This document shows, piece by piece, positions 766 to 44,681 of a stretch of DNA of 64,000 bases. Both the position numbers and the translations under genes were made by a program. This DNA comes from Eubacteriales bacterium (lineage in GTDB: Bacteria > Bacillota > Clostridia > Oscillospirales > CAG-272). Below the pieces are notes generated by a model. That model had not been told where the DNA came from. It made no database searches and saw only the letters and a list, made by a program, of their open reading frames with translations. Location of the stretch: NCBI GenBank assembly GCA_045650025.1, contig JAZRQR010000020.1, positions 11,077 to 75,076 of the forward strand. Reading direction: 5' to 3'. Numbering within the stretch: the stretch's first letter is position 1; every line of letters begins with the position of its first letter.

Positions 766-854
766 CTGTTCAGTATGCATTCACGCATAAACCTCACCTA
801 AAAATGGGTCCCATCCCATTTTTGGAGCAAAGCTCCACGGTGAAGTTTCAAAAC
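766..854 (+). promoter_or_regulatory. Repeated structured leader element, copy 1 (three-way junction upstream of ppa)
   Basis: 90% identical over 89 nt to 6629-6717; P1 789-798/839-848, P2 800-808/815-823, P3 824-828/832-836. Confidence 0.5.
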
Positions 855-888
855 TATTTACGCCGCCATGAGCGGCATGGAGGTTATT

Positions 889-1434
889 ATGAACATTTGG
901 CATGACATCGATCCCGCAGAGATCACCCCTGACAAATTTACGGGTGTCATTGAAATCCCCAAGGGAAGCAAGTGTAAGTATGAAATGGACAAGAAGACCG
1001 GTCTTTGCCGTCTTGACAGAATCCTGTATACCGCAACGCACTATCCCGCAAACTACGGCTTTATTCCGCGCACCTATGCGGACGACGGAGACCCGCTGGA
1101 CGTGCTGGTGCTTTGCGGCGAGTCGATCTATCCCATGACGCTGATTGACGTATATCCCATCGGCGTGGTGCGAATGATTGACGGCGGTAAGCTGGACGAT
1201 AAGATCATCGCCCTGCCTTGCAACGACCCTACCTACCGTGAAGTTACCTCGCTGGATGAGCTGCCCGCGCACGTATTTGATGAAATTATGCACTTTTTCA
1301 TCGTGTACAAGCAGTTGGAGAACAAGCAGACCGCTGTTAAGGAGCTGCACAGCGCAGCAGAAGCAAAGGTCATTATCCAGGCGGCTATTGATAAGTATAA
1401 CGAGCTGGAAGCAGAAGGCGCTTTCAAAAAGTAA
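889..1434 (+). CDS. ppa: Inorganic pyrophosphatase, family I
   Basis: MNIWHDI...IEIPKGSKCKYE...YPANYGFIP..DGDPLDVLV motifs; GGAGG 6 nt upstream of ATG 889 (ORF track start 868 trimmed). Confidence 0.9.
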   Translation: MNIWHDIDPAEITPDKFTGVIEIPKGSKCKYEMDKKTGLCRLDRILYTATHYPANYGFIPRTYADDGDPLDVLVLCGESIYPMTLIDVYPIGVVRMIDGGKLDDKIIALPCNDPTYREVTSLDELPAHVFDEIMHFFIVYKQLENKQTAVKELHSAAEAKVIIQAAIDKYNELEAEGAFKK

Positions 1435-6122: not shown

Positions 6123-6605
6123 ATGTTTCGTCCCATGGTTCGACAGAGCAAGCAGCTATCAAAAGAGGATTGCATTTCCGTTTTGCGCGAGCAAAAGAGA
6201 GGCGTGCTGAGCGTCAACGGTGACGACGGCTACCCCTATGCCGCGCCCATCAACTACTATTACAATCCGGAGGACGGCTGCCTGTATTTCCATACCGGCA
6301 AAAGAACCGAGAGCCACCGCACCGAATCGCTTGCCAAGTCGGATAAGGTATGCTTTTGCGTGACCGAGCAGGGAACTCCCATCCCCGGCGATTGGGCGTT
6401 GCTTGTGCGCAGCGTGGTGGTGTTCGGACGCGTGGAAATGGTGCACGACGTTGAGCGCGTGGTGCATATCTGCACGGCAATGAGCCGACAATTCACGAGT
6501 GACCAAGCGTTTATTCAACGTGAGATCGACCGCTTTGCCAAGGGCACGCTTTTGCTGAAGCTGACGCCCGAGCACATGTGCGGCAAGCGTCTGGAAGAAA
6601 AATAG
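6123..6605 (+). CDS. Pyridoxamine 5'-phosphate oxidase family (FMN-binding split barrel) protein
   Basis: 160 aa; RGVLSVNGDDGYPYAAPINY pattern typical of PNPOx/Nim-like proteins. Confidence 0.7.
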   Translation: MFRPMVRQSKQLSKEDCISVLREQKRGVLSVNGDDGYPYAAPINYYYNPEDGCLYFHTGKRTESHRTESLAKSDKVCFCVTEQGTPIPGDWALLVRSVVVFGRVEMVHDVERVVHICTAMSRQFTSDQAFIQREIDRFAKGTLLLKLTPEHMCGKRLEEK

Positions 6606-6628
6606 CCGCGAAGTTTTACTTTACTCGC

Positions 6629-6717
6629 TTGTTCAGTATGCATTCGCGCCTAAACCACACCTAAAAATGGGTCCCAACCCATTTTTGGAGCAGTGCTCCA
6701 CGGTGAGGTTTCAAAAG
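6629..6717 (+). promoter_or_regulatory. Repeated structured leader element, copy 2 (upstream of bcp)
   Basis: P1 6652-6661/6702-6711, P2 6663-6671/6678-6686, P3 6687-6691/6695-6699; SD 6721-6727. Confidence 0.5.
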
Positions 6718-6730
6718 TTAGGAGGTTATT

Positions 6731-7183
6731 ATGCTGACAGTAGGACAAAAAGCCCCGGATTTTACACTTTTCGATAAGGACGGAAACGCCGTCTCACTCT
6801 CCGACTTCCTTGGCAAAAGGGTAGTCGTATATTTCTATCCCAAGGACAACACCCCGGGATGCACGCGCCAGGCATGTGCCTTTGCGGGTGCGTATGCGCA
6901 GTTTCGGGAAAAGGACGTGGTAGTCATCGGCATCAGCCGCGACAGCGTCGCCTCGCACGTCAAGTTTGCACAGAAATACGACCTGCCGTTTATCCTGCTT
7001 TCCGACCCCGATCGCGTTGCCATTGACGCGTTTGGCGTATGGAGCGAGAAAAAGCTGTACGGTAAGCTCAGCTTTGGCGTTAACCGTACCACCTTTCTGA
7101 TCGACGAGCAGGGCATTATCACCCACGTTATGCCCAAGGTCAAGCCGGACACCAATGCCGCCGAGATTCTGGCGCTGCTTTAA
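6731..7183 (+). CDS. bcp: Thioredoxin-dependent thiol peroxidase (peroxiredoxin Bcp)
   Basis: 150 aa; PKDNTPGCTRQAC peroxidatic Cys motif. Confidence 0.9.
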   Translation: MLTVGQKAPDFTLFDKDGNAVSLSDFLGKRVVVYFYPKDNTPGCTRQACAFAGAYAQFREKDVVVIGISRDSVASHVKFAQKYDLPFILLSDPDRVAIDAFGVWSEKKLYGKLSFGVNRTTFLIDEQGIITHVMPKVKPDTNAAEILALL

Positions 7184-44290: not shown

Positions 44291-44375
44291 GCGAGAGTGG
44301 CGGAACTGGCAGACGCGCACGTTTGAGGGGCGTGTGGTTCACACCGTACGGGTTCAAGTCCCGTTTCTCGCACCA
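44291..44375 (+). tRNA. tRNA-Leu(GAG)
   Basis: Hand-folded cloverleaf: acceptor GCGAGAG/TTCTCGC, anticodon loop TTGAGGG, long variable arm, T-arm ACGGG-TTCAAGT-CCCGT, encoded CCA. Confidence 0.9.
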
Positions 44376-44408: not shown

Positions 44409-44495
44409 GCGGGTATGGCGGAATTGGCAGACGCGCTAGATTCAGGTTCTAGTGGGGGCAACTTCGTGGAGGTTCAAGTCCTCTTACCCGCACCA
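44409..44495 (+). tRNA. tRNA-Leu(CAG)
   Basis: Acceptor GCGGGTA/TACCCGC, anticodon stem CTAGA/TCTAG, loop TTCAGGT, long variable arm, T-arm GGAGG-TTCAAGT-CCTCT, encoded CCA. Confidence 0.9.
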
Positions 44496-44531: not shown

Positions 44532-44675
44532 TGGTACAGGTAAGAGACCACGCAGAAGCTCCTGCGAGTACGGTGCATACTGAACACATCTATACAAGTG
44601 GTCTCCGTACTCGACGCAATAGGGAGCGCAAAGCGCGAGTCTTTGCCAGGTTCTAAGTCCTCTTACCCGCACCAA
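44532..44675 (+). other. Structured module B ending in a tRNA-Leu 3'-end copy (candidate ncRNA or att-site scar)
   Basis: 5' TGGTACAGGTAAGAGA is an inverted (14/17) copy of the tRNA 3' end; 3' end AAGTCCTCTTACCCGCACCA identical to 44476-44495. Confidence 0.4.
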
Positions 44676-44681
44676 AAAGAG

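Follow-up and report, generated by a model that had tools for sequence, protein, structure and literature searches.

The window, by which we mean the whole stretch of 64,000 nucleotides that was analyzed, carries two closely similar sequences, one directly upstream of ppa and the other directly upstream of bcp. Pfam assigns the products of these genes to Pyrophosphatase and AhpC/TSA, respectively. Pairwise alignment of positions 766-854 with 6629-6717 is gapless over 89 nt and yields exactly the nine substitutions that the initial annotation had counted (at 766, 783, 787, 794, 814, 830, 831, 844, and 854). The start context attributed to both genes is likewise shared, with GGAGGTTATTATG through ATG identical at 879-891 (ppa) and 6721-6733 (bcp), and the invariant 5′ block TGTTCAGTATGCATTC preceding the fold is the same in copy 1 and copy 2. 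Predicted folds agree with the proposed three-way junction of helices P1, P2, and P3 in both copies, with z scores of -4.7 (copy 1) and -2.9 (copy 2) relative to shuffled sequences. The early description of a structured element located directly 5′ of single genes on the sense strand is accurate for both copies. The 29-nt core formed by P2 and P3 occurs at two places in the window, namely the two copies (0 expected by chance), and a covariance model run on the window recovers these copies and no others. Matches to the 5′ block with three mismatches at 44571 and 56924 have no core close by and are attributed to chance.

The element is larger than was first proposed. Its real start lies further 5′, and the overlooked 5′ third consists of an additional helix, P0, together with a GUG placed at the host ribosome-binding site. 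By aligning flanks across the family described below, we deduced that copy 1 extends over about 743-888 and copy 2 over about 6606-6730, both on the + strand. Copy 1, a B-type unit with a P4 hairpin, sits between the host Shine-Dalgarno (SD) sequence with its spacer and the ppa ATG; its boundaries are set to within about 4 nt by family alignments and by comparison with an empty orthologous site at locus L052. The host SD, GGAGG at 734-738, directly follows the obg stop codon (731-733), is common to the empty site, and precedes the GUG of the element by 6 nt. An open reading frame (ORF) of 18 codons runs from this GUG (745-801) to a UAA at 799-801 in the P1/P2 junction. P0 (743-786) pairs GCGTGAA at 743-749 with TTCACGC at 780-786 around a 30-nt loop that contains the block TGTTCAGTATGCA. 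The three-way junction (789-848) is built from P1 (789-798/839-848), P2 (800-808/815-823), and P3 (824-828/832-836). An extra 5-bp hairpin had been noted in copy 1, and it is indeed present as P4 (862-876), but GCCGC lies at 862-866 and GCGGC at 872-876 rather than within 861-875. The element then supplies its own SD (GGAGG, 879-883) and a spacer before the ppa ATG (889-891).

Copy 2 is of the bcp type, which has no P4 and carries GCG in place of GUG, and it begins right after the stop codon of the upstream gene (6603-6605). Here, P0 (6607-6648) pairs CGCGAA at 6607-6612 with TTCGCG at 6643-6648. The junction (6652-6711) comprises P1 (6652-6661/6702-6711), P2 (6663-6671/6678-6686), and P3 (6687-6691/6695-6699), and the SD of the element (6721-6725) is followed by the bcp ATG (6731-6733).

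The same order of parts recurs throughout the family. A locus-specific SD is followed by a spacer usually ending in TAGC, by GUG AAA G, by a variable loop of ~30 nt, and by UUCACGC, which pairs back on GCGUGAA to form P0 with the GUG inside. P1, P2, and P3 come next, and then an A/U-rich spacer, usually P4, the sequence (C)AUGGAG(R)UU, 4-7 nt, and the AUG of the gene, for a unit length of 125-150 nt. In most family members P4 is a 6-bp stem, GCCGCC/GGCGGC.

An exact-pattern scan of one genome per species with the pattern ATTTTTGGAGCNNNGCTCCACGG returned 44 loci. Of these, 43 are true copies, found in about 14 MAGs that carry the label Eubacteriales or Clostridia bacterium and come from the gut of sheep, cattle, and yak, and a single match in a Balneolaceae MAG is set aside as chance. 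A covariance model built from 50 cores identified 56 units in those loci and the window, and a second scan anchored on P0 and the P1 5′ strand added seven more from one metagenome. What had been regarded as a leader of ppa and bcp in two copies is actually an interspersed repeat located before unrelated genes. It comprises no fewer than 63 units, distributed over about 50 loci, in about 14 MAGs of ruminant-gut Clostridia and one metagenome. Each MAG holds at least 4-10 units, as judged from a locus sample that derives from exact-match scans of incomplete MAGs and is biased.

The initial annotation recognized no named riboswitch, ribozyme, or leader family, and Rfam agrees at both gathering and permissive thresholds: cmscan of the whole window gave two tRNAs only, and a permissive scan of 700-950 gave only a chance match to CRISPR-DR47 (E = 1.9). 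Collections of plasmids, phages, and viral contigs contained no match to the unit, and the family loci examined included no orphan 5′ or 3′ ends of the kind that could flank an autonomous parent element. Exact-protein look-ups of the ppa and bcp products found no record; the closest ppa homologues share 84% identity, and the named ones belong to Ruminococcaceae or Oscillospiraceae MAGs.

Compensatory changes provide comparative evidence for the helices. Where the two window copies differ at 783 (A versus G), the pairing partner has changed in step (T versus C at 746/6609), which converts a U-A pair to C-G and P0 from GCGUGAA/UUCACGC to CGCGAA/UUCGCG. Among 35 full-length units, standard pairs make up 97.8% of pair cells, and nine pairs have changed on both sides (two in P0, three in P1, one in P2, and three in P4). 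Shuffled controls average 1.0 such double changes, and none of 500 shuffles reaches nine. RNAalifold independently arrives at these five helices, with the SD and AUG left out of any pairing. Single-sequence folds give a mixed picture of SD accessibility, with the SD of copy 1 predicted to be partly paired. In that copy, AACCTC on the P1 5′ strand (790-795) is perfectly complementary to GAGGTT at the SD (880-885), and some predicted folds use this pairing. We rejected SD sequestration by the P1 5′ strand (AACCUC/GAGGUU) as a feature of the family, since the pairing exists in copy 1 only, is absent from copy 2, and is unconserved elsewhere.

The folding strand is not distinguished by these data. 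The opposite strand folds about equally well, and for copy 1 the - strand is slightly better. A G.U intermediate would be tolerated only by + strand RNA, and a C.A intermediate only by the opposite strand. Because the two are about equally common in the helices, this test cannot discriminate between + strand RNA, the - strand, and single-stranded DNA as the folded species. The P2 and P3 stem sequences behave differently from the other helices in that they are almost invariant and are without covariation of note across the family. The first search pattern had prescribed P3 and the 3′ half of P2; both could vary in the second scan, which again showed them invariant. This near-invariance would argue for sequence-specific recognition by a putative partner over a purely structural role. 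The P2 loop is variable, both in sequence and in length (4-7 nt), and a few aberrant copies depart further from the consensus: one (L031:5263) keeps the three-way fold with different P2 and P3 sequences, another (L032:4471) is without P3, and a third (L048) is without P2.

The placement of the units relative to genes is highly regular. All are sense to the next ORF, and 47 of the 48 terminal units end 14-38 nt before an ORF start; for 8 of the 56 units, the next feature is another unit in a tandem array of two or three. Copies scattered in random orientation and position had been named as the mark of a REP/MITE-type repeat, a pattern that differs from the sense-strand copies before genes found here. 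The only unit with no gene next to it, L039:3266-3510, has a degenerate SD region and is followed by a 10-codon ORF, a terminator-like hairpin, and then the own ribosome-binding site of the next gene; it is a decayed or stranded copy. Pfam-confirmed targets include ppa, bcp, recA, a mutY-like glycosylase gene, queA, and genes for L-fucose isomerase, an aldo-keto reductase, a histidine kinase, an Lrp-type regulator, and EutN. Others were recognized by N-terminal sequence only (murG, a CobW-like protein, and a predicted NUDIX protein). The downstream genes are functionally unrelated and therefore do not form one regulon.

Four pairs of filled and empty orthologous sites reveal where the units insert. 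In each, the unit lies precisely in the gap that separates the host SD and its spacer from the host ATG. The first pair compares the filled ppa site of the window with the empty site of L052, where the order of genes is identical (obg, ppa, LMWPc, nitroreductase, DUF5722). The empty site reads GTAAAATAAGGAGGGTATCT up to the insertion point and ATGAATATC after it. The filled site reads GTAAAATAAGGAGGCTTAGC up to this point, continues with an insert written GTGAAAG...(146 nt)...GGAGGTTATT, and resumes with ATGAACATT. In the second pair, it is the window that holds the empty site, GGAGGAATGACA followed by ATG (2543-2557, + strand), and the orthologous gene of MAG locus L015 is filled at exactly this point. 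The third pair (L016 versus L043) and the fourth (L033 versus L011 and L017) give the same picture as ppa. As read from these alignments, with boundaries accurate to about 4 nt, the unit puts its GUG at the place of the old ATG and delivers a new SD for that ATG.

Among 45 non-internal units, 40 have an SD-like tetramer no more than 16 nt upstream of the GUG, compared with 9.5% of random windows. The spacing from host SD to GUG varies (4-9 nt), and the upstream flanks are unrelated between loci. Frequent SD sequences at variable spacing within unrelated flanks indicate that the left SD belongs to the host and not to the repeat. The units also form arrays. The number of units before bcp is one, two, or three depending on the MAG species, as in a VNTR (L001:1858-2188, L030:1892-2092, and L037:2071-2266), and further arrays are found at L011:983-1349 (three units), L017:5375-5595 (two), and L026:5308-5528 (two). 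An inverted-repeat search found internal helices only, with no terminal inverted repeats and two unrelated ends. There is no consistent target-site duplication among the four pairs: a TA duplication fits L033/L011 and does not fit L015/window, L016/L043, or window/L052. We therefore rejected a TA-duplicating MITE, for which terminal inverted repeats are absent and duplication is seen in one of four filled/empty pairs.

Two loci carry a separate element of ~285 nt with terminal inverted repeats of ~20 nt (TAGCCGTACGGGAATCGAAC and GTTCGACTCCCGTACGGCTA) and a very stable fold (z = -6.9). It lies at a TA inside the P0 loop, in opposite orientations, before bcp in one case (L040:3618-3903, - strand) and before queA in the other (L034, within the upstream ~180 nt, element-oriented). 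This element is probably a MITE or a structured RNA. A tmRNA or tRNA fusion was considered for both loci and discarded, given that ARAGORN and Rfam were negative and that the tRNA-like end is an inverted-repeat terminus of the ~285-nt element; the same searches of L034 and L040 found no tRNA- or tmRNA-linked integration site for the leader unit. Elsewhere in the window, tRNA genes are present at 44291-44372 and 44409-44492, and the 3′ end of the second appears again ~160 nt later, at 44649-44676 (GTCCTCTTACCCGCACCAAA). This duplicate resembles an att-site scar such as a small element would leave on integration or excision.

The ORF that opens at the GUG differs considerably among copies. Its length is 5, 10, 14-15, 18, 32, 47-55, or 110-121 codons, its frame differs between subfamilies, and four units have GCG in place of GUG with a compensating change in P0. 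In about 18 copies, an ORF of 47-55 codons extends across the unit to a stop at, or close to, the host ATG. About 11 of the units, designated A-type, have a 49-codon ORF whose stop codon overlaps the host ATG by -4 (AUGA), an arrangement seen neither in the window copies (18 codons in one and no start codon in the other) nor in most B-type units. Near-identical A-type copies occur at different loci in several MAGs, and this most uniform subfamily looks as if it has spread recently across them. A protein search with the 49-aa peptide gave four clusters only, none annotated, and four related peptides have been called as genes in public data. A conserved leader peptide was nevertheless rejected on the grounds that many ORF lengths and frames exist and only the first ~8 codons are alike. 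Because ORF length runs from 5 to 121 codons and bcp-type copies have no such ORF, translational coupling cannot be the general function of the unit.

The genomic context suggests that the units are transcribed as part of the mRNAs of the genes they precede. Some have clear TTGACA/TATAAT promoters 40-60 nt upstream in unique DNA (identified by eye in MAG loci), and others follow the stop codon of a co-directional upstream gene. Both window copies lie within apparent transcription units whose only terminators come after ppa and bcp, and a terminator scan flagged no intrinsic terminator at P2 on the + strand. Candidate promoters inside the unit (TTGTTC-16-TAAACC and TTTATA-16-TAAACT) were dismissed, as they score below the scan threshold and the transcript would start within P1. 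A weak sigma-70-like match, TTTACG-18-TAAAAT (9/12), is present at 702-731 in the 3′ end of obg. It may be a chance occurrence, and transcription from it would start almost exactly at the host SD and the 5′ end of the element. On the - strand at 860-878, P4 and the following AAATAGTTTT match the pattern of a terminator that could stop antisense transcription into the leader.

Orthologous copies have changed remarkably little. Leaders at orthologous loci are 89-100% identical overall, compared with 56-86% for codon third positions of the genes. For three individual pairs, the respective values are 99% versus 75% (L002/L028), 100% versus 77% (L021/L042), and 99% versus 81% (L005/L035). The bcp leaders are 85-98% identical (89-98% for the pairs involving the window), and the corresponding values are 77-91% for the bcp coding sequence and 56-79% for its third positions. 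The L016/L043 leader pair is less well matched (73% identity), perhaps as a result of replacement or of independent insertion. Orthologous units keep locus-specific features and are therefore old and vertically inherited. Moreover, change that is slower than at third positions is not predicted by selfish spread alone, which indicates that the units matter to the host gene. The reason for this conservation may be that the unit holds the only SD of the gene and that each of its stems hides an SD-like or anti-SD-like strand. These strands include CCUC and GGUGA in P1 and GGAGC/GCUCC in P3, and loss of a stem could occlude the ribosome-binding site. A binding partner specific to the invariant P2/P3 junction may equally be the reason.

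Taken together, these observations lead us to propose that the units belong to a MIRU-like family of repeats that insert at start codons, are transcribed as mRNA leaders, and supply a replacement ribosome-binding site, rather than being riboswitches of one regulon. We assign this interpretation a probability of roughly 0.6. The structured, SD-carrying, MIRU-like repeat family of uncultured gut Clostridia is new, and the window contributes two of its units and one empty site. The view of a novel regulatory RNA serving two genes gives way to this broader one in light of the heterogeneous targets, the insertion polymorphism, and the near-invariant P2/P3 stems.

In the mechanism we envision, an orientation-locked repeat of 125-150 nt sits between the original ribosome-binding site of a gene and its start codon. 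The unit is gained or lost as a block, can form tandem arrays, and would be transcribed within the mRNA of the gene. Its 5′ end places a GUG at the former start-codon position, 4-9 nt after the host SD, with P0 locking the GUG. The middle folds as the P1/P2/P3 junction, often followed by the P4 hairpin, and the 3′ end gives a new SD and spacer, unpaired in the consensus fold, from which the host ATG would be read. We infer this use of the internal SD, like transcription of the unit, from position, and any coupling and the cause of the conservation are likewise proposals; family membership, placement, orientation, insertion polymorphism, the helices, and the slow change of orthologous copies are shown by the data. 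In the youngest-looking subfamily, the 49-codon ORF would lead from the GUG through the unit to the AUGA on the host start, and ribosomes loaded at the old site might be handed to the gene as in MIRUs or in the engineered "bicistronic design". The window copies have a truncated ORF (copy 1) or a startless one (copy 2), so that the internal SD alone could serve. A more far-reaching version, which we offer only tentatively, is that the unit might be a self-contained mobile translation-initiation cassette. Such a cassette, a natural counterpart of the bicistronic design, would target start codons, take over the host ribosome-binding site for its GUG, and bring a replacement SD, and a putative dedicated protein or RNA partner that reads the invariant P2/P3 junction would serve movement, translation, or mRNA stability. 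On this version, the family and MIRUs together would make start-codon targeting a general feature of bacteria and no longer a mycobacterial peculiarity.

Several other explanations share part of this evidence. The repeats could be purely selfish, non-autonomous mobile DNA resembling MITEs or hairpin transposons, whose hairpins serve a transposase on single-stranded DNA and whose SD makes insertion harmless with no function at the RNA level. Multiple copies, presence/absence polymorphism, tandem arrays, and helices that fold as well on the - strand without strand asymmetry are all compatible with this explanation, and the near-identical A-type copies at different loci in several MAGs suggest recent spread. 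However, terminal inverted repeats are absent, TA duplication is confined to one of four pairs, no transposase-bearing relative was seen in the loci, plasmids, phages, and viral contigs contained no match, and selfish spread alone does not explain why orthologous copies are so much better preserved than synonymous sites. Selfish DNA is thus an unlikely account. The same purifying selection, the 5′ leader location beside the SD, and the invariant P2/P3 stems and junctions expected of a specific partner could instead reflect a cis-regulatory RNA (a riboswitch, protein-binding leader, or thermosensor) that responds to a trans-acting factor, places many genes under one signal, and has spread by duplication. 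Some targets would even fit a stress or repair theme (recA, the mutY-like glycosylase, bcp, and the predicted NUDIX protein), but others such as fucose isomerase, histidine kinase, EutN, and queA would not. In addition, the junctions are only 0-2 nt and have no conserved internal loops for a pocket, P2 or P3 can be lost, and alternative SD pairing is not conserved. A riboswitch or ribozyme in particular was rejected because Rfam has no match and the downstream genes are unrelated, and a regulatory RNA of any of these kinds strikes us as quite improbable.

Two further proposals are weaker still. Perhaps the conserved entity is the peptide that begins at the GUG, either as a small protein or as a leader-peptide attenuator. 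This would account for the suitably spaced SD that precedes the GUG in 40 of 45 units, for the 47-55 codon ORF in about 18 copies, and for the four related peptides called as genes. This is very hard to reconcile with a peptide of varying length and frame that is similar over its first ~8 codons alone, with a P2 loop whose length varies from 4 to 7 nt, and with the four units in which GCG replaces the start codon and P0 is compensated; an attenuator would call for a conserved leader peptide, or a conserved stop position, coupled to alternative hairpins. Least probable of all, we believe, is a site for site-specific recombination or a gene-cassette boundary (akin to integron attC or integrase att sites), a notion prompted by imperfect hairpins between genes, fixed orientation, discrete units, and tandem arrays. 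The copies are at scattered housekeeping loci rather than in cassette arrays, synteny is unchanged around filled versus empty sites, no integrase was seen among nearby called genes, and attC-type core sites were not recognized on reading the sequence.

If the preferred interpretation of a start-codon repeat that supplies a ribosome-binding site is correct, then this family would be the second lineage, independent of the first, in which repeats insert with precision at start codons. To our knowledge, MIRUs in mycobacteria are the only such case described so far. The anatomy of the family described here is much richer, with five helices, an SD carried by the unit, and, optionally, a coupled upstream ORF; filled/empty pairs define the insertion to within a few bases, and how such repeats find start codons would become directly testable. 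The unit would also constitute a natural, portable ribosome-binding-site module for Clostridia. For annotation, it follows that these ~150-nt leaders should not be read as riboswitches, nor their short internal ORFs as genes.

Comparison with known systems helps to place the family. The small bacterial interspersed repeats ERIC/IRU, Correia/NEMIS, BOX, RUP, and bcr1 listed in PMC3110155 are similar in size, multi-copy, intergenic, often transcribed, and predicted to form stable RNA structures. However, those families are bounded by terminal inverted repeats, flanked by target duplications, or both, are found in either orientation, and show no fixed relation to start codons. As to size, bcr1 is a Firmicutes repeat of about 155 bp. 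None among them is known to supply the ribosome-binding site of a gene as a rule. Putative mobile promoters and 5′ leader duplications likewise place near-identical upstream sequence before unrelated genes, but here any promoter-like sequence is found in the unique DNA that flanks the unit, and the unit itself carries an SD and no recognizable promoter. An engineered parallel is the bicistronic design (BCD), cited in PMC12548453 (ref. 78), which has in common with the family an SD1, a short leader cistron with SD2 near its 3′ end, and a stop codon overlapping the start of the gene. BCDs are without stable helices, whereas the family here is natural, repeated, and dominated by such helices, and its leader cistron is often broken.

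The nearest relatives in kind are MIRUs, which have units of 46-101 nt and reside in Actinobacteria, whereas the present family has units of 125-150 nt and resides in Clostridia. It also differs in having five helices with compensatory changes, its own SD, and an internal ORF that is intact in a minority of copies. We liken the family to MIRUs by the description of the class and claim no membership of the mycobacterial family itself. As described in PMC12548453, which cites Supply et al. (1997), MIRUs insert at start codons with an internal ORF coupled at -4 nt, minimizing the effect on the host gene. MIRUs are small, occupy intergenic regions that are transcribed, point the same way as the genes on either side, and form tandem arrays of variable copy number; their insertion is tolerated because the internal ORF ends in a stop that shares 4 nt with the host start (AUGA). 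The family described here likewise inserts at start codons in the orientation of the gene, as seen in four filled/empty pairs and in units that are all sense, and forms tandem arrays whose unit number varies (one to three before bcp, and the arrays of L011, L017, and L026).
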